A stretch of DNA of 64,000 nucleotides from a bacterium (GCA_965216635.1 OZ244188.1:219205-283204); one strand, 5' to 3'; positions 26,133 to 57,167 are shown, counted from the first letter of the stretch. The notes: a model not told the origin generated them from the sequence alone. Numbers and translations are program-made.

Positions 26133-26147
26133 AAGAAAGAATATTCT

Positions 26148-26714: not shown

Positions 26715-26799
26715 TTAACTTACCAACCTCTTATATCCTTACCATTTTTATACCGATTCCTTAAAAATACTCTTCAATAAAAAAACAAATAAATGAAAA

Positions 26800-27048: not shown

Positions 27049-27538
27049 GCAAACTTTAAATAAAAACAGGCAGTTTATTATTACTGTAAAAGTTATTGAG
27101 TCACCTTTGGAAAAAGAGAAATACAAAGACGGCACAGCACAAAGATTTCTTATTAAGGCGGAAACTCAAAAAGCTTTGATTGATACAGGTGCTAATACGA
27201 CTAGTATATCTCAAAAATATGCGAATGAATCAGGTTTAGTTGCTACTGGAAAAACCATTACAAGTACTGCTGGAGGAGATTGTAGAGAAAATTTATTTTT
27301 GATTGATATTGCTATTCCGATTACTCAAACTGCATTAAAACCTTTTACAGCAAAAGACGGTAGTCAGCAGTTTAAACCATTTATAATTGGAGAAGAACAT
27401 TGGGCTCACGCAGAACTTGAGGTTACTTCTTTTGCAGTTGGTGAAGGATATTATGGTTTTGATATTCTTTTAGGTATGGATATACTATCTCAAATGCATA
27501 TTACTATGTTTCATAATGAGATTATTATGTCTTTTTAA
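27035..27538 (+). CDS. Retropepsin-like (clan AA) aspartic peptidase
   Basis: ALIDTGANTTSIS contains the D-T/S-G-A catalytic motif in a hydrophobic-hydrophobic-D-T-G-A context; about 170 aa, typical of single-domain bacterial retropepsins. Confidence 0.55.
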   Translation: MSSFRQTLNKNRQFIITVKVIESPLEKEKYKDGTAQRFLIKAETQKALIDTGANTTSISQKYANESGLVATGKTITSTAGGDCRENLFLIDIAIPITQTALKPFTAKDGSQQFKPFIIGEEHWAHAELEVTSFAVGEGYYGFDILLGMDILSQMHITMFHNEIIMSF

Positions 27539-27588
27539 AAAATTGTAAAATTTATTACACAAGTTTTCTTAATTTTAAAAAATAAAAA

Positions 27589-28935: not shown

Positions 28936-28937
28936 AT

Positions 28938-29080
28938 TAGAGACCTTTGAATTAGCGTTCTGTTTAGCCTATGCGTCGTTGAAAAAAATTTTTAACTCTT
29001 GAAATACTTGAGTATTCCTGCGAGCTAAATTTTTTTTTTGCCTTGCCTAGCCGTCACATAACGCAAATTCAAAGGTCTAT
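28938..29080. mobile_element. MITE-like repeat (about 143 bp) between actC and actD
   Basis: tagagacctttgaattagcgttctgtttagcctatgcgtcgttgaaaaa...ttgccttgcctagccgtcacataacgcaaattcaaaggtctat; clear inverted termini. Confidence 0.8.
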
Positions 29081-29097
29081 AAATTTTACTAAAAAAA

Positions 29098-37292: not shown

Positions 37293-37643
37293 TTAGGCAT
37301 TTGTTCTTTCACAGCGAATCAAAATAAAATCTGCTTTTGCTAAAGCCTTAGGTTTTAGACATTCTACTTCCAGCCATTTTAAACGAGTATCTTGAATCAA
37401 GAAATCAGCTACTTCATTCGCTAAAGTTTCTAGGAGAGAAAATTTTTTCTCTGATAAAAAGTTTTGTAACTTTTCACAAAGTTGGGAATAATCTACTGTC
37501 TGTTCTAAAGCATCTTTTTCTAGCTCTGGTTCTTTTTTCAGTCTGTATTTTAGATTAAAAACAACCCTTCTTTTTTTTTTCTGCTCCCAAGCAAAACAGC
37601 CAAGATAAACTTTTAGGGATAAGTTTTGAATTTCTACTTGCAT
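37293..37643 (-). CDS. folB: Dihydroneopterin aldolase
   Basis: 116 aa; MQVEIQNLSLKVYLGCFAWEQKKKRRVVFNL matches the FolB N-terminal GVYDWE...Q pattern and size. Confidence 0.7.
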   Translation of the reverse strand: MQVEIQNLSLKVYLGCFAWEQKKKRRVVFNLKYRLKKEPELEKDALEQTVDYSQLCEKLQNFLSEKKFSLLETLANEVADFLIQDTRLKWLEVECLKPKALAKADFILIRCERTNA

Positions 37644-37663
37644 ATTTTGAACTTTTTGAAAAG

Positions 37664-37737
37664 TAGCGATGGGGTGAATTGAACACCCGACCTTACGATT
37701 ATGAGTCGTACGCTCTAACCATCTGAGCTACATCGCC
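37664..37737 (-). tRNA. tRNA-Met (anticodon CAT; could be Ile2-lysidine type)
   Basis: Reverse complement reads GGCGATG-TA-GCTC-AGATGGTT-AGAGC-G-TACGA-CTCATAA-TCGTA-AGGTC-GGGTG-TTCAATT-CACCC-CATCGCT-A: full cloverleaf, T-loop TTCAATT, anticodon CAT. Confidence 0.85.
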
Positions 37738-37908
37738 TTTGCAATTGTTTTAGTCTAATCTGAATAATTTTCCAAGAAAAATTTTAAACAGAAATAGGAG
37801 CTTTAATACTTGGATGAAACTGATAATTTTCTAAAGCAAAATAATCAAGATAAACTTTTAGGGATAAGTTTTGAATTTCTACTTGCATATTTTAAACTTT
37901 TTGAAAAG

Positions 37909-37982
37909 TAGCGATGGGGTGAATTGAACACCCGAACTTATGATTATGAGTCGTATGCTCTAACCATCTAAGCTACATCGCC
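37909..37982 (-). tRNA. Diverged duplicate of tRNA(CAT), likely pseudo-tRNA
   Basis: Same 74 nt with 6 substitutions, including a C-A mismatch in the anticodon stem (ATACGA/TCATA). Sits in a duplicated block with a folB 5' fragment. Confidence 0.5.
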
Positions 37983-38055
37983 TTTATTTTTGAGATTTTT
38001 GAATTAACTCTATATAGATGCTAGGCAAGACGCGTGAACTCTACACAATAGCAAA

Positions 38056-38310
38056 TCAGTTATAAATATTACCTCTAAAATCTGCCTTATCAACAACAAT
38101 TTTATCGTCAAGCACATAAAAAATAAAACGAATTTTTCCGATTCGTAGCCGATAAAAACCTTTTGCCTTACCTTTAAGCATTTTTATATCTAAATTGACT
38201 TGATTGGTTTTAAAAAATTTTAAATCTTCAAGTTTTAATAAATATTTTGATGAATTCTTTAAACTACTGATAAATTTATAAACTGATTTTCTGATAATAA
38301 GGCGATACAT
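38056..38310 (-). CDS. RelE/ParE-family type II toxin
   Basis: 84 aa; ...GKAKGFYRLRIGKIRFIFYVLDDKIVV... matches the RelE/ParE G..YRLR.G.YR..Y core. Confidence 0.7.
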   Translation of the reverse strand: MYRLIIRKSVYKFISSLKNSSKYLLKLEDLKFFKTNQVNLDIKMLKGKAKGFYRLRIGKIRFIFYVLDDKIVVDKADFRGNIYN

Positions 38311-38312
38311 CT

Positions 38313-38489
38313 TTATAATTCTACAAAATCATCTTCCGTTATCTGTTTATCAAAAGCATCATTTTTATATATACTTTCAATTTCTGCTTGCTCCTTATCA
38401 GATATAAAATTGTATCTTGGGAAATATTCTTTTAGAGCATCTTGTATTAATGATTTTAATTCACTTTTTTTTATAATAACTGTATCCAT
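38313..38489 (-). CDS. Small antitoxin partner of the RelE/ParE toxin
   Basis: 58-aa ORF (MDTVIIKKSELKSLIQDALKEYFPRYNF...) not in track (<60 aa), ending 3 nt before the toxin start. Confidence 0.5.
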   Translation of the reverse strand: MDTVIIKKSELKSLIQDALKEYFPRYNFISDKEQAEIESIYKNDAFDKQITEDDFVEL

Positions 38490-38612
38490 AGTATTTTTAA
38501 TTTTATTTGGGATAGCTCTCCATTAGTTTGATTTAGATTAACCTAACCTAGCTAATTTTTAAAGTAAAAATATCAACAATTTTTGGCTTTTAAAATTTAT
38601 TTTTTTAAAGAA

Positions 38613-39446
38613 CTAAACAGAGATAGGAGCTTTAATACTTGGGTGAAACTGATAATTTTCCAAAGCAAAATCTTTCACTTCGTATTCTTCTAAAGAGTTT
38701 CTTTTTTTCAAAATAGCTAGTTTTGGTAAAGAGTAGGGTTTTCTCGTTAGTTGTAATTTTGCCTGCTCTAAATGGTTTTTATAAAGGTGAATGTCGCCTC
38801 CAGACCATATTAGTTCGCCTACTTCTAAACCACTATGCAAAGCGAGTAGGTGTGTAAGTAGAGCATAGCTTGCGATATTGAAAGGAGTTCCTAAAAAATA
38901 ATCTTGACTACGAGCAAAGAAAAATAAAGATAATTTATCTTGATTGACAAAAAGCTGTGTTAAAAGATGACAACAAGCTAAAGCCATTTTACCCTGTTTG
39001 ATGTTCTCTTGGGGGCTAATGTCTTCGTCTGGCAAATCTTCTACATTCCAACCGCTCAAAATCATCCTACGGCTATGAGGTTTTTTTTTTAGACTCCGCA
39101 GCAGTGTTTTTATTTGGTCGTAATTTTTACCTTTACTACCGCTCCAATTTCTCCACTGTTTGCCATAAATAGGACCTAAATTGCCATCCTCAGCTGCCCA
39201 TTTATCCCAGATACTACAACCGTTATCTTTTAAGAATTGAATGTTTGTATCACCGCGTAAAAACCATAAAAGCTCAGCTACTACGCTTTTAAAATGAATT
39301 TTTTTAGTGGTGATAATCGGAAAGCCAGCCTGTAAATCAAATCTTTGCTGTCTAGCAAATAAAGAAAAAGTGCCAGTACCAGTGCGGTCTTTTTTTTCTG
39401 CTCCTTCTTCTATAATCTGCTTCAATAAATCTAAATAACTTTGCAT
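38613..39446 (-). CDS. thyA: Thymidylate synthase
   Basis: 277 aa; DRTGTGT, LPPCH-equivalent region CCHLLTQLFV, sizes and C-terminus typical of ThyA. Confidence 0.85.
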   Translation of the reverse strand: MQSYLDLLKQIIEEGAEKKDRTGTGTFSLFARQQRFDLQAGFPIITTKKIHFKSVVAELLWFLRGDTNIQFLKDNGCSIWDKWAAEDGNLGPIYGKQWRNWSGSKGKNYDQIKTLLRSLKKKPHSRRMILSGWNVEDLPDEDISPQENIKQGKMALACCHLLTQLFVNQDKLSLFFFARSQDYFLGTPFNIASYALLTHLLALHSGLEVGELIWSGGDIHLYKNHLEQAKLQLTRKPYSLPKLAILKKRNSLEEYEVKDFALENYQFHPSIKAPISV

Positions 39447-39565
39447 TTTTTATGCGATTAAACTTAAAATTTTATATTTTTTGTTTTTCTGTAAGTGGTT
39501 TGTAGACAGGATTTTTTTCTTATTTTTTTCTTGGTTAGTTTTTTAGGTATTTTTATTGTTTTTAA

Positions 39566-39865
39566 TTATAACCCTAGTTCCGAATGGGAACCTGTTCTAA
39601 TTAAAATAAGTTCGTCATTTTTTATTCTATATTCTAAAAGCCAATCTCCTTTTATGTGGCATTCTTTGTTACCTTTACTACTACCTTTCAATTTATGGTC
39701 TTTATTGATTTCAGGGAGCTTGATTCCTTGGGCTAATAATCCAATAATTTCATTAAGATCATTAATATCTCTATTTTTGCTTTTACCTTGTCGGTTTATT
39801 TTTTCTAGATCGTCTTTAAATTTTTTTTTATATTTTAGAGTATAATTATATTCTGACTCTGACAT
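39566..39865 (-). CDS. YafQ/RelE-family type II toxin (mRNA interferase)
   Basis: 99 aa; KDHKLKGSSKGNKECHIKGDWLLEYRIKNDELILIRTGSHSEL matches the YafQ C-terminal signature (H...DW.L.Y......L.L.RTG.HS.L). Confidence 0.7.
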   Translation of the reverse strand: MSESEYNYTLKYKKKFKDDLEKINRQGKSKNRDINDLNEIIGLLAQGIKLPEINKDHKLKGSSKGNKECHIKGDWLLEYRIKNDELILIRTGSHSELGL

Positions 39866-40453
39866 CTAAATCCCTAAATCTTTTAGCATAGACTTAAAAT
39901 CACTATAACTTTTTGGTTCAGGTTCGGATAATAAAGCCACTATAGTTTCTCTGTTGGGAAGTCCAAATGATGGTATAGGATAATATGCTTTTATTTCTTC
40001 TTTGGGTATTTTGATATTTTTAATGTTTGGTTTATACAATCTTGCCCAAGGACTGTTTTCATCGTGAAATTCGTCATAAAAATACTTTTTACTCATTGAG
40101 GAATAAATTTCTATAACAGTATCTAGTATTTCTTCAGTCTTCCTCTGTAGGCTACTACTGGCATTATCTATTATAGATGGAATAGTTTTTTTACCATTTT
40201 TTAAAAAATAATATTTTTCTTTTATATTTTTATTACCATAATTCTTAAATTTACAATAAACCTCAGGTATGACAGGCCCATGTTCCCAAGCCTGAATTTC
40301 ATCTTTAAATAATTCTAAATTGTAATAAGCAGAACCTATTCCATAAGCACTGTAAACAAATTTGTTTAATTTAAAATTGTCTATCTCTTTAACTTTATCA
40401 ATAAAATAATTTGCTATTTGGACTGCGGTGTATTTATTATTTTCAGTTTCCAT
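39866..40453 (-). CDS. Panacea-domain (DUF4065) antitoxin, immediately upstream of the YafQ-like toxin
   Basis: QAWEHGPVIPEVYCKFKNYGN hallmark; 195 aa; its stop abuts the toxin start. Confidence 0.7.
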   Translation of the reverse strand: METENNKYTAVQIANYFIDKVKEIDNFKLNKFVYSAYGIGSAYYNLELFKDEIQAWEHGPVIPEVYCKFKNYGNKNIKEKYYFLKNGKKTIPSIIDNASSSLQRKTEEILDTVIEIYSSMSKKYFYDEFHDENSPWARLYKPNIKNIKIPKEEIKAYYPIPSFGLPNRETIVALLSEPEPKSYSDFKSMLKDLGI

Positions 40454-40740
40454 TTTTAGTATCGGGCAATTTCTATAAATATTTTTTAGGTTTTGGAATA
40501 AAGGATATATTTTGAAAATCGTCGCTTATATCAACAAATAAGTGATGATTTTCTTCTTTTATCAGCTCAAATATTCTCCAATTTTCTCTTTTTTTTGATC
40601 TCTGTAGATATTTTTTTTTAAGTATCTTTTTTCCCCTAATTTATGAAAGTCGTATTTGTTATCAAACATAAATTTTATAGTTGGTGATATTGAGTTTATT
40701 TAACTAAAAATAATAGTAAAAGTCAAGGTTTTATAAAAAA

Positions 40741-40870
40741 TTTTTCATACAATCAAATTTTGTTTGTCTAGCAAATAAAGAAAAAGTGCCAGTACCAGTG
40801 CGGTCTTTTTTTTCTGCTCCTTCTTCTATAATCTGCTTCAATAAATCTAAATAACTTTGCATTTTTTATG
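40741..40870. repeat. Duplicate of thyA promoter-proximal/5' coding region (copy b)
   Basis: ttttcatacaatcaaattttgtttgtctagcaaataaagaaaaagtgccagtaccagtgcggtc...ctaaataactttgcattttttatgcg identical to 39346-39465 (real thyA start). Confidence 0.9.
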
Positions 40871-42569
40871 CGCTAGGAGATAAATTTTCTTTAAAAAAAT
40901 TTAATATAGTGCGGGAAAATTTATCTTCTCGTTTTTCAATATCTTCTTTTAGCCAATCGTCTTTAGTATATCGTGATAATTTTTGAACCTCTGCTATATT
41001 AGAATTTTTATATACTTCTTTTTTTGTTTTGAAGTTATCATTGCTTGCTTGATTATTAGTTTTTTTCTCTATAGCAACCTTGTTGCCGAATTTTTCTCTA
41101 TATTTCTTTGCATCTTCTTCACTCCATCCATGATAATTCTTCCACCGCCAAGGAAAAATATGTTCAATCTCAAATTTTTCTGAAATCAATTCTTCTTGTT
41201 TTGGGTTTTGATAAGCGTGCACTAAAATTAGTCCTCTTGCTATTCTTAAGTTGTTTGCATTACTAATCCTAGTTTTCAAAGGTGGATTTTGGTATTTTTC
41301 TAATTCAATATTCATTTCATAATTTTTATTTTGGCATAAATTTTCACACTCTTTATGAGTATCGTTTTTAATTTCATTTACAGTTGGTTTTTCTATAAAT
41401 TTGACATACAAAAATGCAGTTAGTTTTTTTAAAAATTGTAGAAAATTTTCTTCAAAATTAGGTCCATCTTTTTTTTTCAGATAAAAAACGCTAGTGAGAT
41501 ATCTCCAATGTTCGTTTGGATAATTTTGTAAGCAATGCAGATATTTATACGTTTCTTGGATAATTTTTTTATTTTTAAAATCTAAATCTCTTCCATTTAT
41601 AGCTACCCAAAAAGTAGCTAGTTTATCTAAATTTTCCAGCAAATTAGGCTCTGCTAGTTTTTTGTAACCGTCTCTTGCATAAAATTTTCTTAAACTCACT
41701 TCAACTTCCTTTTTAGTATTTTTTGCTTTTCCTCCAAGATAGCGCATATAATAGGTAAATAAATTATTTAAAAAAATTTTAGCGGGTTCAAGTTTTTTTA
41801 CTTTTTCTACCAATTCTTTCCAATCATTAATAAATTTTTCTTTTTCTTCATCTGTTTTTTTTGTTTTATAAATTTCTGCTTTAAAAATATCAGAGTCATT
41901 CAAAGGCAATCCTCTATCGTTAAGTGTAGAAAAAATTGTTAAGGCAGCGCCAGCATTATTGCATTCAATAGGTAAAATGATACATTTATTTAGTATAACA
42001 CTGAGTAAAGAGTGCCATTTTAAAGGCTCATTTCTAGCGTATTTTTCGCATTGGTTATAAAAAAAATTATAATTTTTTTGGTACCTGTTTTTTTCATCAA
42101 TATCTAATTTTCCTTCTGTTAAAATGGTATGAAATATTTTATTATCACTTTCAGTAACAACTTTTGATTCAATATTTATTTTTGTTTTATTTTCTGCTCT
42201 ATGATAGGTTTCATCCACTTCCCAAATGCAAGGTTCAATATCTCTTTTTAAGATATCAATGTTACTATCTTCATTCATTTCTTCTAGTTTTTTATAAAAG
42301 GCTCGCAACAATAAAAAAAATGAAATAACTCTCTGCTGTCCGTCAATAACTTCTATATTTTTTTGTTCATCTTTGCTGGTAACTATTGTACCCAAAAAGT
42401 ATTCTTCCTCTTTTTTATCTTTAGAAAAATTATCTATATCATCCCATAAAATTTCACATTTTTCTTCATCCCAGCTGTAAGGTCTTTGGTATTCAGGAAT
42501 AATAAATTTCCCTTTCTTAATGCTTAAAAAACTTTTTATACTTTCTCTGCTTACATTTAATTCTGCCAT
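40866..42569 (-). CDS. GmrSD-family type IV (modification-dependent) restriction enzyme, DUF262+DUF1524
   Basis: N-terminal DUF262 with IPEYQRPYSW and DGQQR motifs; C-terminal DUF1524/HNH-like EIEHIFP...; 567 aa. Confidence 0.7.
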   Translation of the reverse strand: MAELNVSRESIKSFLSIKKGKFIIPEYQRPYSWDEEKCEILWDDIDNFSKDKKEEEYFLGTIVTSKDEQKNIEVIDGQQRVISFFLLLRAFYKKLEEMNEDSNIDILKRDIEPCIWEVDETYHRAENKTKINIESKVVTESDNKIFHTILTEGKLDIDEKNRYQKNYNFFYNQCEKYARNEPLKWHSLLSVILNKCIILPIECNNAGAALTIFSTLNDRGLPLNDSDIFKAEIYKTKKTDEEKEKFINDWKELVEKVKKLEPAKIFLNNLFTYYMRYLGGKAKNTKKEVEVSLRKFYARDGYKKLAEPNLLENLDKLATFWVAINGRDLDFKNKKIIQETYKYLHCLQNYPNEHWRYLTSVFYLKKKDGPNFEENFLQFLKKLTAFLYVKFIEKPTVNEIKNDTHKECENLCQNKNYEMNIELEKYQNPPLKTRISNANNLRIARGLILVHAYQNPKQEELISEKFEIEHIFPWRWKNYHGWSEEDAKKYREKFGNKVAIEKKTNNQASNDNFKTKKEVYKNSNIAEVQKLSRYTKDDWLKEDIEKREDKFSRTILNFFKENLSPSA

Positions 42570-42601
42570 AATAATTTTTAAAGTTTAGGTTTATAATACT
42601 A

Positions 42602-42664
42602 TAGACCTTTGAATTTGCGTTATGTTTAGCCTTGCCGTCGCATCAGCGAAATTCAAAGGTCTAT
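42602..42664. mobile_element. Short MITE (63 bp)
   Basis: tagacctttgaatttgcgttatgtttagccttgccgtcgcatcagcgaaattcaaaggtctat. Confidence 0.8.
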
Positions 42665-42779
42665 AATAAAAAAAAGTAAGTTTGTATAGTTTAGCAAAAA
42701 AAACTTCTTTGTCAAGTATAAAATATAATTTTTAGCAAAAAAACTTCTTTGTCAAGTATAAAATAGACTTTTGATTTTA

Positions 42780-42965
42780 ATGGTTTTTTTGTCTGGAAAT
42801 AATTTTTCTATTATAAGGAGTATGTTTTTCTATTTTCATACAATCAAATTTTGTTTGTCTAGCAAATAAAGAAAAAGTGCCAGTACCAGTGCGGTCTTTT
42901 TTTTCTGCTCCTTCTTCTATAATCTGCTTCAATAAATCTAAATAACTTTGCATTTTTTATGCGCT
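42780..42965. repeat. Junction block: 5' fragment of the 410-aa methyltransferase gene + duplicate of thyA 5'/promoter region (copy a)
   Basis: 42785-42850 is the reverse complement of atgaaaatagaaaaacatactccttataatagaaaaattattt (compare 46040-46085). 42838-42990 repeats the thyA start plus 40 bp of its upstream region. Confidence 0.85.
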
Positions 42966-43862
42966 TAAACTTAAAATTTTATATTTTTTTTCTACTAATT
43001 TTAATTCCTTATTTTTATTTTCCCAAATATTAACAAAATCTTTGTTTTGCATAGTGCGAATTTTCCCCAGATAGATTGAAACAAAAGAGTCATTAATTTT
43101 TGTTTCTTTTGCTTCTACTACATTTTTTTTTGCTATTTCCACATAGTCAGAATCTAGCTCTATTCCAATATAGTTTCTTCCTAATTGTTTTGCTGCTATT
43201 GCTGTAGTTCCAGTTCCTATAAATGGATCTAAAACCACATCGTTTTCTTCTGTGGACATTAAAATCAACCTTTCTAAAAGAGGAATGGGTAACTGGCAAG
43301 GATGGTTATCTCGTCTTTTTTTGTGACGGAGTCTATGAATATCTGTCCATACATCTGAAAGTAAGGGACCGAATCCATGGGCTTGATCTTTTTTACCGCC
43401 ATAATCTTTTAGAAATTCTTTACAACTACGGCAACTAGAATGCGGAGCTCTAATATCATAAAATTTAAAATCTTTATAATTTTGCGAACGAGTGTAGTAT
43501 AAAATTCCATAATGATTTGGTAGTAAAGTTTTGCCAAGCGGAACCCCACCAGAGTCCCAAGAAATCCAGTGTTTAAAGCAAGCAATTTTATTTAGATATC
43601 CTGCATAGTAATTAAGCCAACGAGGAATGTTATGCACAAAAATAGAACCGCTAGGTTTTGTTACTCTTACCATTTCACTAATCCATTCTTTACACCAATT
43701 CAAATAGTCTTCTTGTTCTTTCGTATCTTCATAGGAAGTATAATTTTTTTTGAGGTTAAAAGGTGGGTCAGCAAAGCTCATATCTGCAGACTCATTTGGT
43801 ATTTTTTTTAGCCATTGCAGGCAATCTCCTTCTATAATTTTATTGAGGTATTTTTTAAGCAT
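42957..43862 (-). CDS. Beta-class N6-adenine/N4-cytosine DNA methyltransferase
   Basis: N-terminal NKIIEGDCLQWLKKIP...FADPPFN (motif IV) and C-terminal VLDPFIGTGTTAIAA (motif I); pfam N6_N4_Mtase order IV then I. Confidence 0.8.
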   Translation of the reverse strand: MLKKYLNKIIEGDCLQWLKKIPNESADMSFADPPFNLKKNYTSYEDTKEQEDYLNWCKEWISEMVRVTKPSGSIFVHNIPRWLNYYAGYLNKIACFKHWISWDSGGVPLGKTLLPNHYGILYYTRSQNYKDFKFYDIRAPHSSCRSCKEFLKDYGGKKDQAHGFGPLLSDVWTDIHRLRHKKRRDNHPCQLPIPLLERLILMSTEENDVVLDPFIGTGTTAIAAKQLGRNYIGIELDSDYVEIAKKNVVEAKETKINDSFVSIYLGKIRTMQNKDFVNIWENKNKELKLVEKKYKILSLSA

Positions 43863-43864
43863 AA

Positions 43865-44848
43865 TTATTTTTTAAAAGTTTGAATGAGAAGTTTTTTAAA
43901 TCTTTCTAACTCTTCTTTATGAAAAGTAAAAACTTCATTATAAGCGCTAACCATTCTTTTTAAATCTCCTTTTCTTACATACCATCCAATACCATCTATA
44001 AATCCAATAAATTTCGCTTTTGGATAATGAGATTTGATAAGATAATCTACAGAAATTTCTGTTTTAGATTTGTCTCCCTGTCCTGATGAAGTTGTAACTA
44101 AAAATGAACTTTCACCAATAATTAAAGGATTTCTTTTGTCTGGTATTATAAAATCCATTGTTCTTTTAGTGGTAGGAGCGTTAGTAACTAATTCGTTTAA
44201 ATCTCCTTTTTCAAAAGGAATATTTAAATCTTTTAATATTTTTTCTATCAGTGTTTCAGGATTATTTTCTTTTTTTCCAGAATAGCTCCCTTTTTCTTTA
44301 TACCTTACTAGAGTATCTATCATTTCTGGTATTTCAAATTTAAGTTTTGAAATACTTAATTTTTTGAGCTCAAATAAAGGAATAGTTTTAGCTAAAAATG
44401 GAATAGTAGAACCTTCAAAAAAAATATTCACTATCCCTTTCCTAAAAGATTGATTTTCTTTTATTATTTTTCTAATCTGACTGTCTGACCATTCTTTAAT
44501 ATCACTACTTTTTTCTTCAAACCATTCTTCTTTATTTACTAATCTATTAAGTTCATCATCATTAACTACTCTAATAATTGTTGTTAATCTTTTTAAAGTT
44601 TCATTAGAAAAACCTGTTAATGCCAATAACGCTCTCAAACCATTTTCTTTTTCAAGGAGTATTTTTTCAAATAACTCTTTCTTTAGTCCATTATTTTCAA
44701 TTTCATTTTTTAAAAATAAAAGTATTTCTTTTAATGAATTCAGATAACCCTCATATTTTTCTTCAAAAATTGGGTTGAAAAAATAAAAAGTATTTTTACT
44801 GATTATAGTCTGAAATTTTGATTCTATTGTTGGTAAGTTTGTTTGCAT
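43865..44848 (-). CDS. Hypothetical protein, candidate restriction endonuclease of the R-M cassette
   Basis: 327 aa, sandwiched between two MTase genes with 2-4 bp spacing; possible PD-(D/E)xK-like segment MDFIIPD...IIGESSF...K; no firm motif. Confidence 0.35.
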   Translation of the reverse strand: MQTNLPTIESKFQTIISKNTFYFFNPIFEEKYEGYLNSLKEILLFLKNEIENNGLKKELFEKILLEKENGLRALLALTGFSNETLKRLTTIIRVVNDDELNRLVNKEEWFEEKSSDIKEWSDSQIRKIIKENQSFRKGIVNIFFEGSTIPFLAKTIPLFELKKLSISKLKFEIPEMIDTLVRYKEKGSYSGKKENNPETLIEKILKDLNIPFEKGDLNELVTNAPTTKRTMDFIIPDKRNPLIIGESSFLVTTSSGQGDKSKTEISVDYLIKSHYPKAKFIGFIDGIGWYVRKGDLKRMVSAYNEVFTFHKEELERFKKLLIQTFKK

Positions 44849-44852
44849 AGCA

Positions 44853-46085
44853 TTATTTTAAATTTTTAAAAAATAGAATAGATTCATTTTTCATACTATT
44901 TTGAAGACCCCTAATAGGCTTGCTCATTTTTAGATTTAAACACAAATTTTGTTCTTTTGCTATTTCAATAATTTTATTTTCTAAATTTACTCCTTTTGTT
45001 TGAATCTCATTTGTTCCTATAATTATAATAATAAAAGAATCTTTCTTAGAAACTCTCTTCATTTCTTTTAAAGCTACTGCCATTTTTTCAAAATACAATT
45101 CTAATTTACTTTCTATTCCTCGTCCTGACAAGCCAATCATTTCTTCTCTTAAGGTATTCAGATTATATCCGAGGTATTCTAGTTGAGGTTGATCGTTCTT
45201 TAGATAATCAATAGCAAAAGAATATGGAGGAGAAGTTATAATAGCGTCCACAGAATCGTCGTCAATAGGTAATTGTAATGCACTTGCTTGAATTATTTTA
45301 CTGTTGCCTATTTTTAATTTAACTTCTTTTCTTGCTTTTTGAAAATTACCTATAGTCGCAACATATCTTTCTAATACTCTCGGGAAAAGTTTTTCAATAG
45401 AAGCACTAATTCTATTTGAGAATCCCATAGCATCTAAAAAAGCCAACAAAACTATTTCATAGTATCTTTTTTTATCACAAGGACTATTTGACAAATAATT
45501 AAGGATTTTTTTACTTTTAAGTCCATTTAATAATCCTATTGGATTTTTTGTAATTTCTTGCAATATTTCAATATCTAAATTTAAAGCGAAGGTTTTTACT
45601 TGACCCATTAAATTACAAAAAGGACTCAAATCTACAGCAATAGAATTAAGATTAAGCAAATTTGCTTCTACTGAAAAAGTAGAACTCCCAGCCATTGGAT
45701 CTAAAACTACATCTCCTTTTTTAATTTTTAAGATATTTAATAAAGCTCTAATTAATTGTGGATGAAATTTTCCACGGTATGGAAAAAGACTATGTGTAGA
45801 ATAACCTGTAGAATATTTTCCATTTAAGAAAAATACTTTTGTTCTAAATGAACTTTCTTTATGAATTTCTTCAAGATTGTGTAAATTACAAGTTTTAAAA
45901 TGAATCGTTTCTATTCCAGCCACCGTTTTGAAAAAGGCACTTCTATCAATTAATTCTGTTTTTGATAAATTTTCATATTCCCACAAAGCCAAATCTAATT
46001 CAAAAATATCATCTGTACCTTCAATTAACTGGTAACCTTCTGGAAATAATTTTTCTATTAAAGGAATATGTTTTTCTATTTTCAT
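44853..46085 (-). CDS. Gamma-class-like DNA methyltransferase (motif I before motif IV)
   Basis: HSLFPYRGKFHPQLIRALLNIL...GDVVLDPMAGSSTFSVEA (AdoMet motif I) then IITSPPYSF (motif IV); 410 aa. Confidence 0.7.
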   Translation of the reverse strand: MKIEKHIPLIEKLFPEGYQLIEGTDDIFELDLALWEYENLSKTELIDRSAFFKTVAGIETIHFKTCNLHNLEEIHKESSFRTKVFFLNGKYSTGYSTHSLFPYRGKFHPQLIRALLNILKIKKGDVVLDPMAGSSTFSVEANLLNLNSIAVDLSPFCNLMGQVKTFALNLDIEILQEITKNPIGLLNGLKSKKILNYLSNSPCDKKRYYEIVLLAFLDAMGFSNRISASIEKLFPRVLERYVATIGNFQKARKEVKLKIGNSKIIQASALQLPIDDDSVDAIITSPPYSFAIDYLKNDQPQLEYLGYNLNTLREEMIGLSGRGIESKLELYFEKMAVALKEMKRVSKKDSFIIIIIGTNEIQTKGVNLENKIIEIAKEQNLCLNLKMSKPIRGLQNSMKNESILFFKNLK

Positions 46086-47620
46086 ACAATCAAATTTTGT
46101 TTGTCTAGGAAGCGGTAGTGCACAGCTTCGGCGAGGTGGGCGACTGCTACCGTTTCTTTTTTGTCAAGGTCTGCGATGGTGCGAGAAATTTTCAAAATTC
46201 TATCATAAGCTCTACTAGAAAAATTAATTTTTTCCATTGTGGCACGCAGAAAATTAGAACCTTCTTTATTCAGTTCACAAAAAATTTCAATTTGCCTGCG
46301 ACTCATATCAGAATTTGTTTTAGTTGTACTTTTTTTAAATCGTTCTTTTTGGATAGCAGCAACAGCCATCACTTTTTCTAAAACCATACGACTGCTAGAT
46401 TCCGTTTCTGTTTGCTGCATTTCATCAAAGGAAAGATGGGGCATTTCTATTTGTAGGTCAATTCTGTCTAATAGTGGTCCAGAAATACGCGAGCGATATT
46501 TTTGAATTTGGTAGGGAGTGCAATTACAACTATGCAGCGAGCTTCCATAATAACCGCAAGGGCAGGGGTTCATTGCACATACAAGCAAAAATCCAGTGGG
46601 TAGGGTGATACTCATATTTGCTCGGGAAATAGTGACCTCTTTGGCTTCCATAGGTTGTCTAAGGTTTTCTAAAGTTGTTCTTTGAAATTCTGGAAGTTCA
46701 TCTAAAAAAAGCACTCCATTATGAGCGAGGGATGCTTCTCCAGCTTTAGGTTGACTACCTCCTCCAATAAGTCCAGCGGGTGAAATTGTATGGTGCGGAG
46801 AGCGGAAAGGTCTTTCAGTTGAGATTTCTTCGGTTTTTCTTAAATTTCCAGTCGCTGAATGAATTTGGATTAAGCTTAAACACTCTGCTATACTCAACGG
46901 AGGTAGGATTGTTTTTAATCTACGAGCAAGCATTGTTTTTCCAGTTCCTGGGGGACCACAAAATAAAATATTGTGATTACCAGCAGCAGCTATTTCTAAA
47001 GCTCTTTTTGCTTTTTGTTGTCCTTTTACTTCGTTTAAATCTTCAGCGTAGTAGGGCAATTCTATTTTAGGTGGCTGATATTGAGCTAGAATAAGTTCTT
47101 TTCCAAAATCAAAAAAATCTATCACCTGTTTTAAATTTTCGGCTAGATATATTTCCATTCCTTCTACTAGGCTTGCTTCTTTTTGGTTTTCTGCAGGTAA
47201 AATGATTTTGCGGATGCCTTTTTTTTTAGCAGCTAAAAGAATTGGCAAGATGCCCTGCACCGAGCGAATTTTTCCTTGCAAAGACAATTCTCCGACTAAA
47301 AGAAATTCTTTGATTTTGTCTTTGGGTATGTTGTGATTAGCGGCAAGAATAGCAATCGCCAAGGGTAAGTCAAATCCTGTGCCCTGTTTTTTTAAGTTCA
47401 CAGGGGCAAGATTGACTATGACTTTATAAAGATAAAAACCTTTGAGGAGATAGTTGAGAGAAGCAAAAATACGGTCTCTACTTTCACGAATAATATTATC
47501 GGGCAAGCCTACGATATTAAAATAACTAGTGCCTGAACTAACCTCTACTTCTACAGTTACTAGGTGGGCTTCTATACCCCAAAGAGTGGCGGTGTTTGTA
47601 ATTGCAATACTAGAAGCCAT
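46082..47620 (-). CDS. comM: Mg-chelatase-like AAA+ protein ComM/YifB
   Basis: Lon-like N-domain, Walker A GPPGTGKTML, Walker B VLFLDE, C-terminal Mg-chelatase domain. Probable start MASSIAITNT (47620). Last six codons KQNLIV are supplied by the cassette junction sequence. Confidence 0.8.
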   Translation of the reverse strand: MASSIAITNTATLWGIEAHLVTVEVEVSSGTSYFNIVGLPDNIIRESRDRIFASLNYLLKGFYLYKVIVNLAPVNLKKQGTGFDLPLAIAILAANHNIPKDKIKEFLLVGELSLQGKIRSVQGILPILLAAKKKGIRKIILPAENQKEASLVEGMEIYLAENLKQVIDFFDFGKELILAQYQPPKIELPYYAEDLNEVKGQQKAKRALEIAAAGNHNILFCGPPGTGKTMLARRLKTILPPLSIAECLSLIQIHSATGNLRKTEEISTERPFRSPHHTISPAGLIGGGSQPKAGEASLAHNGVLFLDELPEFQRTTLENLRQPMEAKEVTISRANMSITLPTGFLLVCAMNPCPCGYYGSSLHSCNCTPYQIQKYRSRISGPLLDRIDLQIEMPHLSFDEMQQTETESSSRMVLEKVMAVAAIQKERFKKSTTKTNSDMSRRQIEIFCELNKEGSNFLRATMEKINFSSRAYDRILKISRTIADLDKKETVAVAHLAEAVHYRFLDKQNLIV

Positions 47621-49052
47621 AAAAATTATTTTTAGTAAATAGCTTAGACTGTGCATTTAATTTAGCATAAAAATCTCCTAAAAGATAGATAGAGCCAGTC
47701 ACCAAAAAAATAGAATAATTTGCAAACATTCCTTTAAGGAATTTTTCTATAACCTCTTCTAAAGTTTGCGGGCTGTTGGTTTTTAAATGAGCTTTTTTTA
47801 AAGTAGTTTGAATACTAGCAATATCGCCAGCTTTGGAGTGTTTAAAATCTATGGGTAAAAACTCTATATTCAGGTGAGAGAATTTTTTGAGGGATACAAA
47901 AATTTCCTTTTTTTGTACCCAATGGATGGCACAAAGAATTTTATCTTTAAAATGATGTTGCTGGAGATGTTTTGCTAAAGATTCTATTCCTTGAGAGTTA
48001 TGAGCAGCGTCTAAAAGCAAAGTAGGTTTTATTTTTGAAATATAATGCAACCGTGCGGGCCAATGGCTCTTTTGTAGACTGGATGCTATTTTTTTTTTTG
48101 TTAGCCTTTTTTGAGGAGGCACAATAGAAAAGTAAGAAGCGAGAGCTGTAGCTATATTTTCTAATTGGTAGGTAGATATTGTCTGGTTTTTTACTGGGTT
48201 TTTTGCTGGGTTTTTTATTGGGTTTTTTACTGGGCTTTTTATTGGGCTTTTTATTGGGCTTTTATTCTTTGTCCGAATGGGAATTTCTAAAGTTTGTTCT
48301 GTTTTTTTTTTTTGCCATTTTTTTTGTTTAGAGAGAAAAAAATAGGTGTCTTTTCTTTTTTCTAAAAAAAAATCGTTCCCAAAAATTGTTTTTTCATTAT
48401 TCGGGAATTTATCTTGCAAAAGTTTTAAAACAGAATTTTCTTGTGAAGAGCTGATGATAAGGGATTTTTTTTTAACAATACCAAATTTTTCTTGAGCGAT
48501 TTCAAGCAAACTATTCCCTAGAAATTCTGTGTGATCTAAAGAAATAGGAGAAAAAATACAGGCAAGACTTTTAGGGATTGCATTGGTAGAATCCATTCTT
48601 CCTCCCATACCCGTCTCTAATAAAATGTAGTCTGGTTTTTTTTTTTTAAACCAAAAAAAAGCAAGTCCGATACTAAATTCAAAAAAAGTCGGTTTGACGA
48701 GCCAATTTTTATCATTCTTAGAATAAGGGTCTATGCAGCAAATTTCACAAATTTCATCAAAATTTTCTTTTAACTCTGCATCGGAAATCTGTTTGGCTTG
48801 AAAACGAAATCTTTCATTGTAGTCTAATAAATGCGGTGAGGTTGTCATACATACTTTAAAACCACTATCTATTAAGAGTCTTTCTAAAAAACTTAGAATA
48901 GAGCCTTTGCCATTTGTGCCTGCTATGTGAATGATGGCTGGGTGGATCTGTGGATTACCTAGTTTCTCTAAAAATTTATACGTTGTCTCTAATCCTAGTC
49001 TAATATGAAACTCTCCTAATCTATAAATAAAATCCAGCAAATAGTTATCCAT
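47610..49052 (-). CDS. folC: Folylpolyglutamate synthase/dihydrofolate synthase (Mur ligase family)
   Basis: HIAGTNGKGS P-loop and Mur ligase central/C-terminal domains. Start probably MDNYLLD (49052). Carries an in-frame low-complexity insert KSPIKSPIKSPVKNPIKNPAKNPVKN. Confidence 0.75.
   Translation of the reverse strand: MDNYLLDFIYRLGEFHIRLGLETTYKFLEKLGNPQIHPAIIHIAGTNGKGSILSFLERLLIDSGFKVCMTTSPHLLDYNERFRFQAKQISDAELKENFDEICEICCIDPYSKNDKNWLVKPTFFEFSIGLAFFWFKKKKPDYILLETGMGGRMDSTNAIPKSLACIFSPISLDHTEFLGNSLLEIAQEKFGIVKKKSLIISSSQENSVLKLLQDKFPNNEKTIFGNDFFLEKRKDTYFFLSKQKKWQKKKTEQTLEIPIRTKNKSPIKSPIKSPVKNPIKNPAKNPVKNQTISTYQLENIATALASYFSIVPPQKRLTKKKIASSLQKSHWPARLHYISKIKPTLLLDAAHNSQGIESLAKHLQQHHFKDKILCAIHWVQKKEIFVSLKKFSHLNIEFLPIDFKHSKAGDIASIQTTLKKAHLKTNSPQTLEEVIEKFLKGMFANYSIFLVTGSIYLLGDFYAKLNAQSKLFTKNNFYGF
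48175..48255. repeat. 15-bp tandem repeat array (about 6 units) inside the folC coding sequence
   Basis: ttttttactggg/ttttttgctggg/ttttttattggg units; in-frame (5 codons each). Confidence 0.8.
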
Positions 49053-49056: not shown

Positions 49057-49710
49057 TTAGTCTTCAGTGTTACGAAGCATCGGCACAAAAGAAACTCCAC
49101 AAATTTTTCTAATAGCCAGTTTCGGGTTCTTTGGATTTTCGGATTCTTTGGTTATCTCTAGTAAATCTTGATATCCTCTTTCTCCTACGGGGGTGATAAT
49201 TTTTCCTCCTATTTTTAACTGACTGACTAATTCTTTAGGAATGAGTTTGGGAGCGCAGGAGATAAGAATAGCATCATAAGGAGAATGCTCTTGCCAGCCT
49301 TGGTGTCCATCCCCTAGTTTTAAGTGAACGTTAGAAAGAGCCATTTTTTTTAAATTATTTTTTCCCTTTAAATGAAGATAGCGAATTCTTTCAACACTAA
49401 AAACTTGCCCCTGTGAACTTAACAAAAGTTTTGCTAAGATAGCTGTTTGGTAACCGCACCCTGTGCCTATTTCCAAGATATTTTGACACTTTGCTTTTAA
49501 GACAAGTTCTGTCATTAAGGCTACAATGTAAGGTTGTGATATTGTCTGTCCCGCTCCTATAGGTAGAGGTCTATCGTCGTAGGCTTGGAGTTGGTAGTTT
49601 TCTGCTACAAAAAGATGACGAGGCACCTGCTCCATAGCCTTTAATAGATCTGGATTTTGAACGCCCCGAAAAATGATTTGCTCGCGTATCATTTTTTCGG
49701 TTTTTTTCAT
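49057..49710 (-). CDS. pcm: Protein-L-isoaspartate O-methyltransferase
   Basis: GTGCGYQTAILA AdoMet motif and ISQPYIVALM; track start 49728 lies inside the tandem repeat array, so MKKTEK (49710) is preferred. Confidence 0.75.
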   Translation of the reverse strand: MKKTEKMIREQIIFRGVQNPDLLKAMEQVPRHLFVAENYQLQAYDDRPLPIGAGQTISQPYIVALMTELVLKAKCQNILEIGTGCGYQTAILAKLLLSSQGQVFSVERIRYLHLKGKNNLKKMALSNVHLKLGDGHQGWQEHSPYDAILISCAPKLIPKELVSQLKIGGKIITPVGERGYQDLLEITKESENPKNPKLAIRKICGVSFVPMLRNTED

Positions 49711-49721
49711 CCAGTTATTTT

Positions 49722-49800
49722 TTGCCATTGATTTTTTGCCAATTATTTTTTACCAATTATTTTTTACCAGTTATTTTTTGCCAGTATTTTTTTTATGGGT
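49722..49800. repeat. 15-bp tandem repeat array (5-6 units) upstream of pcm
   Basis: ttattttttgccat tgattttttgccaa ttattttttaccaa ttattttttaccag ttattttttgccag; unit related to the folC internal repeat. Confidence 0.8.
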
Positions 49801-52801: not shown

Positions 52802-53129
52802 TACCCTAATACCTGATACCCGAAACTATGAAATTAAGATATTTTTTTGAGTAAGTTAGGGGTTGATAATATTTCAATAAAGTATTAAAAATAAAAGAAA
52901 TACAGACCTAGAAGAAAAGAGACCTATTTTTGACTATTTAAAATTGAACACAGAAACAATAGAAAAATATTTAAAAAAAGAAAAAAACAACATTACTAAC
53001 ACTAAGGTCAAAAATTTTAGTCAAAAATTCTTATCAGGGATAAAAGATGCTAAAAATATGGTGACTGTGTTTGAATTTTTTAAAGATTTGTTTTAAAGAA
53101 AAATAAAAAAGTTATGTTTTTTTATTTTT

Positions 53130-53275
53130 GTGTTATTATTCTTTGTAAAGTTTTATAAAAATAAAACTGAATAACCTAAATTAACTAAAAAAAAGATTGA
53201 CTATTTTTATTTTTTTAGTTACTCTTTGTAAAGTTTTATAAAAATAAAACTGAATAACCTAAATTAACTATAAAA
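53130..53275. repeat. About 60-bp direct repeat x2 upstream of OMP gene 53281
   Basis: ctttgtaaagttttataaaaataaaactgaataacctaaattaacta at about 53141-53200 and 53222-53275. Confidence 0.7.
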
Positions 53276-53280
53276 AGACT

Positions 53281-54570
53281 ATGGAATCTCAAAAAATTAT
53301 GCAAACAAAAGAAATTATGCAAACAAAAGAAATCATGCAAACAAAAAAAACTATGCAAACAAAAGAAATTGTGAAATTAAGCAAAATAACACTGGCAATT
53401 TTAGCTTCGCTTTCGTGCTTGCTTTTACTTTTTGCGGGAGTAAATAATCTGCAAGCCCAAGAAGCAAGACAGCAAGGTTGGTCTATCGGGGTTAGTCCCT
53501 TTTATCTAGGTGCTAAAATCAAAACCACTACAGAAAACACCACCCTTAGAGAAGTAGTAACAACTGGAACCAGAACATTGGATTCTACGAGTGTGGCATT
53601 CAGTGCGAGTACCACCGATAATGTATCTTCGGGCGAAACTGCAGGTGTAGAGGGTGCATTGTTAGCGACTGGTGCTATAAGTTACAGCTCCAATTACAAC
53701 GCAATAGTAATCGCTGCTGTAGTGAATATTTGTGAAGATGGCACCTACGATAATAGTCCTGGAATCTATTCTTCTCGTCAGTTTGACGCAAATTCTAATC
53801 CAGCATCCTCTACAGCAACGACAGATACAGCTGCCTGTTTCAAGTACTTCCAAGGGCTAGATCTAACCTCTTTTAGTGAATTTTTAACAGGAACAGTTGT
53901 AGATTCTTCCACTACATCTGTTTCCGTTAGCAACGAAAATACCAATTTAGCAGGTAACGGATTGGAACTAGGCTACAGCTTTGAAAAGTTTCGCCTTTCT
54001 TTTAGCCTACACCAATGGAGTGCTGGAGACGATAAACTGAACAGTCAAATGGTGCTGGTGGATTACTTCCTGCCCTACGGGCTTTATGCAGGAGCTGGTT
54101 TAGCCCAAGCCAAGCTAGAAACTCCGCTAGGCTCAGATTCAAAAATAGCCCCCGCCGTTCGTTTTGGCTATAAGCGAAATTTTAGCAAAAACTTTTCTAT
54201 AGAAGCGGGACTGCTGTGGGTGGGGACAAAGCTCTCTATAAAACATACCAATGCAGCACCATTAGCAACAACAAGCTCAGCAGCGGAGCCGCTACCGATT
54301 CCTATTACCAGATCTGCATTGGTTGGAGGTCTTATAAATGCTCCAATTAGTAATATTTTATTGTATTTTGTAGATGATAGAAATAATCAATTAAGCCTCG
54401 CAGGAACTACTGATGAAGATAGAAGAATACGAGTAGACGGAACAGTAACTCCAACCTACACTGAAGGACAACAGGAGCCCCTACCCCCAAGAACTGTACC
54501 TACAAAAACAACAATAGAAGTAGAAGCACCAGCTTCTCTTTTTATTCGCTTCGTCTTAAAATTTCGCTAA
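53281..54570 (+). CDS. Outer-membrane beta-barrel family protein (paralog of 16460..17857) with N-terminal MQTKEI x4 repeat
   Basis: Four tandem 18-bp units atgcaaacaaaagaaatt at the 5' end, each beginning with ATG. Signal peptide ...NNLQAQ. C-terminal region aligns with the 522-aa paralog (LVLVDYFLPYGLYAGAGLA...VRFGYKRNF). Confidence 0.6.
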   Translation: MESQKIMQTKEIMQTKEIMQTKKTMQTKEIVKLSKITLAILASLSCLLLLFAGVNNLQAQEARQQGWSIGVSPFYLGAKIKTTTENTTLREVVTTGTRTLDSTSVAFSASTTDNVSSGETAGVEGALLATGAISYSSNYNAIVIAAVVNICEDGTYDNSPGIYSSRQFDANSNPASSTATTDTAACFKYFQGLDLTSFSEFLTGTVVDSSTTSVSVSNENTNLAGNGLELGYSFEKFRLSFSLHQWSAGDDKLNSQMVLVDYFLPYGLYAGAGLAQAKLETPLGSDSKIAPAVRFGYKRNFSKNFSIEAGLLWVGTKLSIKHTNAAPLATTSSAAEPLPIPITRSALVGGLINAPISNILLYFVDDRNNQLSLAGTTDEDRRIRVDGTVTPTYTEGQQEPLPPRTVPTKTTIEVEAPASLFIRFVLKFR

Positions 54571-54690: not shown

Positions 54691-54770
54691 ATAGACTGTC
54701 GTTTTGTCCTATTTGGCAAATAGGACAAAACTAGCTGTTTAGCCTAAACAGAACGCAAATTCAAAAGTCT
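54691..54770. mobile_element. MITE-like repeat
   Basis: atagactgtcgttttgtcctatttggcaaataggacaaaactagctgtttagcctaaacagaacgcaaattcaaaagtct. Confidence 0.65.
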
Positions 54771-56830: not shown

Positions 56831-56860
56831 CTAGTAGACCCAACTAATTTTCCTAACTAA

Positions 56861-57167
56861 TAGACCTTTGAATTTGCCAAATAGAACAAAACTAGCTGTG
56901 ATGGCTAGCCAAATGGTTATAACAGGTGCGAAAATTTACAAAAAAGCGGAGCATACACGGTAGTATGTGAGTGTTTTTTGTAAATTTTTAATGGCGTAGT
57001 GCCACAATATAACGGGATCAGGGCACTACAAAACTTAAAGCTAGCACAATATAGACTGCAAAAGAGCCACTAACAAAAGAGCCAGTGGCTCTTTTGCTAA
57101 AGCCTGTATTGGCGTAAAAGCAATAAGCTTGTTTTGGCTAAACTAGACAAGCAAATTCAAAAGTCTA
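56861..57167. mobile_element. Composite MITE-like repeat (about 300 bp) between rpmF and plsX
   Basis: tagacctttgaatttgccaaatagaacaaaactagctgtgatggctagccaaatggtt...gcaataagcttgttttggctaaactagacaagcaaattcaaaagtcta. Confidence 0.75.

Follow-up and report, generated by a model that had tools for sequence, protein, structure and literature searches.

The 64-kb stretch of bacterial DNA analyzed here (GCA_965216635.1, OZ244188.1:219205-283204; hereafter the window) contains an intergenic hotspot between the housekeeping genes comM and thyA, at which alternative alleles are stacked head to tail. The stacked alleles comprise a methyltransferase–restriction enzyme–methyltransferase cassette (M-R-M), a gene encoding a GmrSD-like type IV enzyme, and a Panacea/YafQ toxin–antitoxin (TA) module. 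The array was probably formed by illegitimate and homologous recombination and its units retained by addiction. Stacking of this kind looks like a recombinase-free route by which defence and TA genes are added rather than swapped. This reading builds on direct observations, namely the anatomy of the array, the native origin of both halves of its joint, relatives with an empty site or a single allele, independent breakpoints, and the foreign composition of the cargo.

Three stacked units between comM and thyA

The open reading frames (ORFs) of the window were annotated by a Pfam scan. Between 37.3 and 49.7 kb, all genes are located on the minus strand (Table 1). The order is folC, the comM/YifB-like gene, a methyltransferase gene of 410 amino acids (aa; MTase-410), a 327-aa ORF, a second methyltransferase gene of 301 aa (MTase-301), the GmrSD-like gene, the genes of the Panacea antitoxin and the YafQ-like toxin, and thyA, which is followed by a TA pair of 58 and 84 aa, a tRNA-Met gene, and folB. 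The GC content of the cargo is 0.24-0.29 versus 0.36-0.40 in the flanking core genes. Domains of integrases, transposases, or resolvases were not detected in any ORF of at least 120 aa in the window. An inverted-repeat search revealed only a dispersed, genome-wide palindrome in unit 2 and none at the cassette ends.

The start region of thyA is present three times. In the sequence alignment, the functional start differed from copy 3 by 1 mismatch over 129 nucleotides (nt) and from copy 2 by none over approximately 108 nt. The copies are anchored by the motif TGTCTAG (plus strand) at 39349, 40765, and 42856, with start-to-start spacings of 1416 and 2091 nt. The thyA piece ends at +98, the end of CTAGACA, and its upstream limit lies at about −38 in the functional copy and copy 3 and at about −10 to −14 in copy 2. 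A fourth TGTCTAG anchor was found inside comM (46102). Four anchors, one of them in comM, delimit three complete head-to-tail units of 3246, 2091, and 1416 nt, not three insertions behind one attachment (att) site. Each unit consists of the last 20 nt of comM, the cargo, and the thyA leader with the first 98 nt of the gene.

The joint between neighboring units is a fusion of thyA (+98) to comM (−20) at CTAGACA, which is used twice in the window. The string aacaaaatttgattgtatga found at the junctions represents the last 20 nt of the comM-like gene including the stop codon. It overlaps the start of MTase-410 by no more than ATGA, which is formed by the comM stop and the methyltransferase start. 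Both the 3′ end of comM (F-L-D-K-Q) and the site in thyA (F-x-R-Q-Q-R-F) are conserved in insert-free relatives, so that both halves of the joint are native host gene sequence. The two gene ends share a patch of 17/21 nt (CTAGACAAACAAAATTTGATT / CTAGACAGCAAAGATTTGATT), and the joint falls exactly there. Among all 21-mers compared between the final 150 nt of comM and the initial 400 nt of thyA, this patch matched best; only 11 of 2000 shuffles reached 17/21.

Several statements of the original prediction, which had been made from the sequence of the window, are borne out by these data: the near-identical triplication of the thyA start, the cargo of the three blocks, the absence of an integrase or transposase gene, the survival of a fragment of approximately 60 nt from the MTase-410 start in unit 2, and the repeated addition at one place with an intact thyA 5′ end regenerated each time. 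Three needed correction. The triplicated region had been given as about −40 to +105, limits that are replaced by those above, the junction string had been equated with the first codons of MTase-410, of which the ATGA overlap is left, and the repeated insertion into one site is replaced by the three head-to-tail units.

Upstream of the GmrSD-like gene, unit 2 carries two 40-nt repeats with the motif TTGACA. The GmrSD alleles of two relatives (L035 and L038) lack them, and approximately 55 nt separate the comM stop from the GmrSD start there. A scan for promoters and terminators gave nothing above shuffled sequences except for these repeats.

Relatives were compared at the level of other species (loci designated L and a number). 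The scan of genome contigs based on a ComM alignment yielded one useful relative (L007), the others being at most 47% identical; the nearest species-level genome is OZ253454.1 (ComM 70% identical, next matches ≤47%). A scan of genome contigs with a single ComM protein gave no match. Metagenome scans resulted in 0 matches with a DNA probe matching the thyA 5′ region of both lineages and in distant matches only with the ComM alignment. Four distant relatives (L003, L004, L005/L006, and L007) retain the order apaG-pcm-folC-comM-thyA and have an empty site with a single thyA 5′ end, the thyA start following the comM stop at a distance of 0-24 nt. L004 harbors a split Cas9-like gene (1474-4688; Cas9_a, RuvC_III, HNH_4), which lies a few kb upstream of the pcm-folC-comM-thyA block.

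The closer relatives (approximately 82-85% nucleotide identity) all originate from one sample of the European Nucleotide Archive (ENA), ERZ26869290. The M-R-M allele alone is located directly before thyA in L040, L001, and L002, and the comM-thyA interval of L035 contains only GmrSD, without any duplication. L035, L040, and L001 each contain one allele and one thyA 5′ end. L039 is a mosaic, in which the 3′ end of another DUF1524-type gene precedes MTase-301. The empty-site comparison named in the original prediction thus revealed empty sites, single alleles, and presence/absence polymorphism. Five contigs of this sample (L001, L002, the first 1.6 kb of L035, L039, and L040) consist of inserts of 2-4 kb concatenated palindromically (forward/reverse/forward) and resemble missed-adapter or amplification artefacts. 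Frameshifts in some of the concatemer passes account for many "truncated ThyA" proteins in the databases.

L038 contains a stacked array of its own, in the order comM, GmrSD, thyA from −9 to about +380, joint, last ~51 nt of comM, two small ORFs, a GmrSD 3′ remnant of 45 nt, and full-length thyA. The repeats within this array show identities of 94% and 86%. The breakpoint differs from that in the window and fuses thyA (+~380) to comM (−~51) in the patch CCxCATAGCxGAAG (12/14). The first small ORF of its second unit is homologous to the frameshifted remnant at the left end of unit 1 in the window. Ends of other alleles are left as remnants in the units in both cases, those of the MTase-410 start and the MTase-301 end in the window and that of the GmrSD 3′ end in L038. 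Because the insert starts with the comM end and carries such remnants, the inserted DNA is regarded as another allele of the hotspot.

Further arrays and other features of the window

A second array was found between thyA and folB. The body of thyA is followed by its last ~58 nt, the TA pair, a copy of tRNA-Met, the start of folB up to about +50, and the joint, behind which the last 58 nt of thyA recur, followed by an intergenic region, tRNA-Met, and folB. The repeats are approximately 95% identical (144/152 and 55/58). Both tRNA-Met(CAT) genes are intact and differ at several positions (Rfam scores of 72 and 64 bits); apart from these two genes, the Rfam search gave nothing. Unit 1 of this locus matches the TA-filled allele of L002 and L035, and unit 2 is colinear with the empty allele of L001. 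The two intergenic regions differ throughout, and neither unit is therefore derived from the other. Judged by this comparison, hotspot 2 is a filled and an empty allele in tandem, an arrangement that additive recombination would predict and cassette insertion would not.

The TA pair is 91% identical to those of L002 and L035, versus 83% for thyA, and the M-R-M cassette is 92.7% identical between lineages versus approximately 83% for the adjacent thyA. This closer similarity of the cassettes than of their thyA flank fits a lateral exchange of cargo. In L038, the TA pair downstream of thyA (10706-10942) lacks the toxin, and the antitoxin ORF runs into the last codons of the toxin (…DDFVEFRGNIYN); the module was apparently disarmed by an internal deletion.

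The third array lies within an alternative-complex-III operon. Three cargo blocks separate the actB-like from the nrfD/actC-like gene, which are 8 nt apart in L005. The first block contains a 229-aa ORF, the second a Panacea protein of 159 aa and a 135-aa ORF, and the third a DUF7931 protein of 173 aa with ORFs of 188, 82, and 167 aa. Two-gene modules, including a second Panacea antitoxin, are thus again part of the cargo, and its GC content is 0.27-0.28 versus 0.38-0.40 in the flanking genes.

Table 1. Features of the three hotspots and of the dispersed repeat family (positions in the window)
Feature	Position	Strand	Remarks
comM, upstream core gene of hotspot 1	46082-47656	-	ComM/YifB-like Mg-chelatase-family ATPase; Pfam Mg_chelatase/ChlI/Mg_chelatase_C; synteny; 3′ end conserved
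comM last 20 nt	46082-46101	-	follows CTAGACA 46102-46108
Hotspot 1, unit 3 (3246 nt)	42856-46101	-	comM last 20 nt, M-R-M cargo, thyA 5′ copy 3
MTase-410	44853-46085	-	N6_N4 MTase (Pfam), 410 aa
Putative restriction enzyme, 327 aa	43865-44848	-	weak DpnII match
MTase-301	42957-43862	-	N6_N4 MTase (Pfam), 301 aa
thyA 5′ copy 3	42856-42953	-	part of fused 58-aa ORF 42777-42953
Hotspot 1, unit 2 (2091 nt)	40765-42855	-	comM-3′ copy, GmrSD cargo, thyA 5′ copy 2
comM-3′ copy	42836-42855	-	
Remnant of MTase-410 start, ~60 nt	about 42785-42838	-	
Two tandem 40-nt repeats	42697-42776	-	each with perfect TTGACA; promoter-like; upstream of GmrSD
Dispersed palindromic repeat	42590-42675		upstream of GmrSD
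GmrSD-like type IV enzyme	40866-42569	-	GmrSD_N+GmrSD_C
thyA 5′ copy 2	40765-40862	-	
Hotspot 1, unit 1 (1416 nt)	39349-40764	-	comM-3′ copy, TA cargo, in-use thyA 5′ end
comM-3′ copy	40745-40764	-	
Small ORF, frameshifted	about 40475-40669	-	intact in L038
Panacea-domain antitoxin	39866-40453	-	SocA/Panacea (Pfam)
YafQ-like toxin	39566-39865	-	
Remnant of MTase-301 3′ end, ~35 nt	about 39450-39485	-	
thyA 5′ end in use	39349-39446	-	
Functional thyA, 277 aa	38613-39446	-	core gene located downstream of hotspot 1 and upstream of hotspot 2
Hotspot 2, unit 1, filled allele	37834-38671	-	thyA last ~58 nt at 38614-38671
TA pair, 58 aa + 84 aa	38313-38489, 38056-38310	-	
Second intact tRNA-Met	37908-37982	-	Rfam
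Joint to second thyA-3′ copy	about 37836-37848	-	ATTTTGC/TTTTGCTT patch
Hotspot 2, unit 2, empty allele	37589-37842	-	colinear with L001 empty allele; native-type intergenic region
thyA-3′ copy	37785-37842	-	55/58 identical
tRNA-Met	37663-37737	-	Rfam
folB	37293-37643	-	start in hotspot 2 unit 2
Hotspot 3	23181-27633	+	inside alternative-complex-III operon; three cargo blocks
actB-like gene	20046-23180	+	
nrfD/actC-like gene	27589-28935	+	
actC −20..+48 copies	23919-23985, 25036-25102	+	86-91% identical, ~64-68 nt; real start region 27570-27633
REP/MITE-like copies, first six	1408-1482, 2770-2859, 8702-8772, 11022-11062, 14753-14917, 16223-16374		
REP/MITE-like copies, last six	28933-29083, 42590-42675, 54729-54770, 56860-56937, 59073-59162, 63856-63945		

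Two other loci were considered as further examples and not counted. A gene encoding an AAA_15/AAA_21 (AbiEii/OLD-like) ATPase (18638-20014, plus strand, GC 0.29) lies between the actA-like cytochrome gene and the actB-like gene, which are adjacent in L005. Its flank repeat is marginal (16 nt, TGAATTAGATATTAAA / TGATTTAAATATTAAA, 14/16) and may reflect this phenomenon on a shorter scale or be due to chance. A pair of a DarT toxin and a NADAR antitoxin (DarTG-type; 62400-63633, minus strand), which is located beside fatty-acid synthesis genes, has no long direct repeats at its flanks.

The window also contains an intergenic palindromic family that resembles repetitive extragenic palindromes or miniature inverted-repeat transposable elements (REP/MITE). 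Its ends resemble TATAGACCTTTGAATTTGCG...CGCAAATTCAAAGGTCTATA, the 64 kb contain at least 9-12 copies, and Rfam gave no match. In L002, L035, and L038, related copies are located behind the TA pair. Several 4-bp palindromes are avoided to an extreme degree: TCGA was observed 4 times versus 201 expected (0.02), and the ratios are 0.09 for ACGT, 0.15 for CATG, 0.25 for GTAC, and 0.38 for GATC. CTAG (1.06) and AGCT (1.48) are not avoided. This pattern suggests a long-term pressure from several restriction systems. Tandem repeats of 12 nt were found inside the folC-like gene (48185-48268; PIKS/PVKN peptide repeats) and of 14 nt around the start of pcm (49692-49793), and repeats of 83 nt (two copies) and 18 nt (six copies) are located upstream of and within a 429-aa ORF at 53281 (53094-53397).

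Origin of the arrays

Three of the joints lie at short microhomologies beside homology to thyA or folB, namely CTAGACA (7 nt), ATTTTGC/TTTTGCTT (7-8 nt), and, in L038, CATAGC (6 nt, 12/14 with its surroundings). The heptamer TGCTAGA was considered as a shared enzyme site and discarded: it occurs in the joints of hotspots 1 and 3 but also elsewhere in the window, and the joints of hotspot 2 and L038 lack it.

The classical signature left by tandem accretion is an array of islands, each one flanked by a copy of the target gene's end. Integrase-dependent elements, decayed and cis-mobilisable, might accordingly have accreted at an att site in thyA with a tyrosine or serine recombinase, encoded at another place of the genome, acting in trans, each of them carrying a replacement thyA 5′ end. 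Besides this signature, the double use of one joint and the near identity of the copies would be expected from such a process, and the inspected part represents 64 kb of a 2.39-Mb genome. Beyond the crossover, however, the native comM 3′ end is found instead of element DNA, the breakpoint in L038 differs at the same hotspot, the joints of hotspots 2 and 3 are unrelated, and hotspot 2 has stacked a cargo-free unit. The window is also devoid of a recombinase gene, and the TGCTAGA of two joints is nothing unusual in it, the contained CTAG being observed 213 times versus 201 expected (1.06). We therefore consider integrase-driven accretion very improbable, and the original prediction's site-specific insertion by an unrecognized class of element does not hold, because the joint is made of two host gene fragments and its position varies. 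Since the joints vary by locus and lineage, consist of native gene ends, and lie at 6-8 nt of microhomology, a dedicated site-specific system is ruled out as the main explanation.

The array might also have arisen during assembly, either by concatenation of strain haplotypes of a variable hotspot or from chimeric reads, so that no single cell would carry it. The genome appears to be a metagenome-type assembly, the exact joint is unique to it, related populations contain the alternative alleles singly, and the related ENA sample has many chimeric palindromic contigs. Random chimeras, on the other hand, would neither repeat one joint nor keep the flanking genes intact at three loci. The copies at hotspots 2 and 3 have diverged by 5-14%, and a second intact tRNA is included; in L038, this architecture recurs with a separate joint and with intact ORFs. 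Sequences at the joints overlap exactly over just 7-8 nt, far below the overlap or k-mer length of an assembler, so reads with the joint must exist. A contig of 2.39 Mb in turn implies long reads that are able to span units of 1.4-3.2 kb. Most likely, the array in the window reflects real molecules; an assembly artefact is very unlikely.

A further alternative relies on events in situ only. Spontaneous tandem duplications at short repeats are common, and a microhomology-mediated duplication of the segment from the comM 3′ end to the thyA 5′ end could have been amplified, with the interiors replaced later by separate illegitimate events. The remnants of M-R-M ends in units 2 and 1 agree with this sequence of events, as does the identity of the thyA pieces, which a recent duplication would give. 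It accounts less well for the occurrence, in relatives, of separate comM-linked alleles that contain the leader of unit 1 or GmrSD joined to thyA at the same boundary. The units of hotspot 2 represent two pre-existing alleles with intergenic regions that are different throughout, and the cassettes are more alike between lineages than their flanks. This course of events, which differs from the favored stacking of alternative alleles in the order of events only, appears unlikely to us.

For the stacking of alternative alleles, we infer the order of events, the entry route of the DNA, and selection by addiction as follows. In a first step, a microhomology-guided illegitimate join would have linked the thyA 5′ region to the comM 3′ end at CTAGACA in the 17/21 patch. 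This could have occurred by a one-sided homology-facilitated illegitimate integration, in which the upstream arm of the incoming fragment measured just tens of nt, by a single crossover of a circularized fragment (Campbell-type integration), or by an unequal exchange, after which one copy underwent allelic replacement. In a second step, the resulting repeat of approximately 130-175 nt would allow homologous recombination to add, amplify, swap, or delete units, and homologous recombination acting on this repeat would explain why an identical joint is used twice. In a third step, tandem products with both alleles would persist because a clean replacement of a resident restriction–modification (RM) or TA module is lethal due to post-segregational killing, and comM and thyA would always be left intact. 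No dedicated recombinase would be involved.

Several points weigh against this explanation. The sequence is compatible with all three routes of the first step alike. Addiction explains the retention only partly, since GmrSD is not addictive and one unit of hotspot 2 is empty. The only competence-related gene seen in the window is comM, which is widespread. A search with the fused joint peptide in a database of 5.8 billion proteins matched only the two fused ORFs of the window itself. At hotspot 3, no source for the segment of approximately 110-160 nt after each actC-5′ copy was found in the actB 3′ end, the window, or the fetched loci of relatives, nor was the partner of the joint. The contigs of ERZ26869290, from which the supporting relatives are derived, often carry palindromic chimeric artefacts, and the compared genomes are all of other species. 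That the array of L038 is itself a chimera is unlikely; the relevant part is colinear with intact ORFs, and an artefact would require an improbable local direct chimera of two strains.

Relation to known systems and significance

The behavior of the comM-thyA locus, which the original prediction did not recognize for any class of element, corresponds to the "insertion with long target duplication" that was first described in Helicobacter pylori (Nobusato 2000 Gene 259:99; PMC2853133) and is still little known. The reported cases come from several species, most of them competent, and comprise RM systems of types I-IV, an mcrA gene, and orphan methyltransferases; the repeats of 30 to >400 bp often extend across a start or stop codon, mobility genes are lacking, and the intact flanking genes were noted as an advantage (PMC2853133). 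The mechanism has been left open since 2000, although double-strand breakage by RM systems was suggested and a cycle of insertion, amplification, and release was hypothesized (PMC2853133).

The arrays in the window share the repeats longer than 30 bp (~108-129 nt, 58 and 152 nt, and ~64-68 nt at hotspots 1, 2, and 3) with the published cases (Furuta, Abe & Kobayashi 2010, PMC2853133). They also share relatives with a single repeat (L003, L004, L005, and L007; L035, L040, and L001; L001 at folB; L005 at actB-actC), the lack of mobile genes in the window, units of 0.25-3.2 kb, which are below the limit of 20 kb, and repeats that span a start or stop and leave the target gene intact; the cargo can consist of a type IV enzyme alone. 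As to RM cargo, GmrSD (unit 2) and M-R-M (unit 3) fit, whereas unit 1, hotspot 2, and most of hotspot 3 contain TA-like genes or nothing. Unlike in the published cases, several units are present per site (three at two loci and two at the third), the cargo includes TA modules, one unit is empty, three loci occur within 64 kb, one of them in an operon, and the 3′ end of the upstream core gene opens each insert, which also contains remnants of other alleles. The hotspot arrays extend this known class and do not constitute a new class of element.

In transformation of Streptococcus pneumoniae, survivors of a lethal substitution hold the resident and the incoming allele in tandem as a result of unequal exchange (Johnston 2013, PMC3784515). 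Different alleles are likewise in tandem here, a filled and an empty one at hotspot 2 and three at hotspot 1. The pneumococcal merodiploids, however, involve 100-900 kb, repeats of approximately 1 kb derived from insertion sequences, and homologous pairing, whereas the units described here measure 0.25-3.2 kb, have joints of 6-8 nt between unrelated genes, and are apparently stably fixed. In homology-facilitated illegitimate recombination, one homologous anchor is combined with an illegitimate join at a nearby microhomology, and functions of mobile elements are not needed. The joints at 6-8 nt of microhomology beside a homologous anchor resemble this process, for which de Vries & Wackernagel 2002 and Prudhomme 2002 are cited in PMC3784515 and PMC3240628. 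Its classical products are insertion-deletions, and the target duplication and reuse of the joint seen here are not known as an outcome of it.

RM complexes resist replacement through post-segregational killing (Naito 1995; Handa 2001, as cited in PMC3031569), and flanking long direct repeats allow their amplification (Sadykov 2003, as cited in PMC3031569 and PMC2853133). Addictive modules resisted clean replacement in these studies and were kept in survivors by rearrangement or duplication, as would also be the case in the window. The earlier studies dealt with laboratory constructs and large rearrangements; the present arrays are natural, small, and composed of different modules including TA genes. 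Cargo blocks between repeated junction copies at one site are also reminiscent of island accretion, of cis-mobilisable elements (CIMEs), and of integron arrays. In contrast to islands and CIMEs, the window contains no recombinase gene, a fixed att core is missing, and the junction consists of two native gene fragments; in contrast to integrons, there is no intI in the window and no attC-like palindrome at the cassette ends.

It is doubtful, though conceivable, that the fused thyA-5′::comM-3′ segment and its counterparts elsewhere function as a portable attachment handle without a recombinase. RecA would then excise a unit as a circle between the repeats, and a single crossover would reinsert it into a genome with the same two core genes. 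If so, defence and TA cassettes would move between genomes in the manner of integron cassettes, though with no integrase. Such a circulation would correspond to the release-and-reinvade cycle that Kobayashi's group hypothesized for RM systems and that was never demonstrated, extended to TA modules and type IV enzymes and enforced by addiction.

Many defence islands and hotspots gain genes without visible machinery of mobile elements, and three arrays are present within 64 kb of an uncultured, deep-branching, low-GC bacterium. The stacking proposed here would turn a descriptive category into a testable model, in which homology-anchored illegitimate recombination is additive and post-segregational killing filters out clean replacements. 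The model predicts a reversible, RecA-driven gain and loss of defence cassettes, and it would account for addictive modules accumulating between essential genes, even inside operons such as that of actB and actC, while leaving these genes undisrupted.

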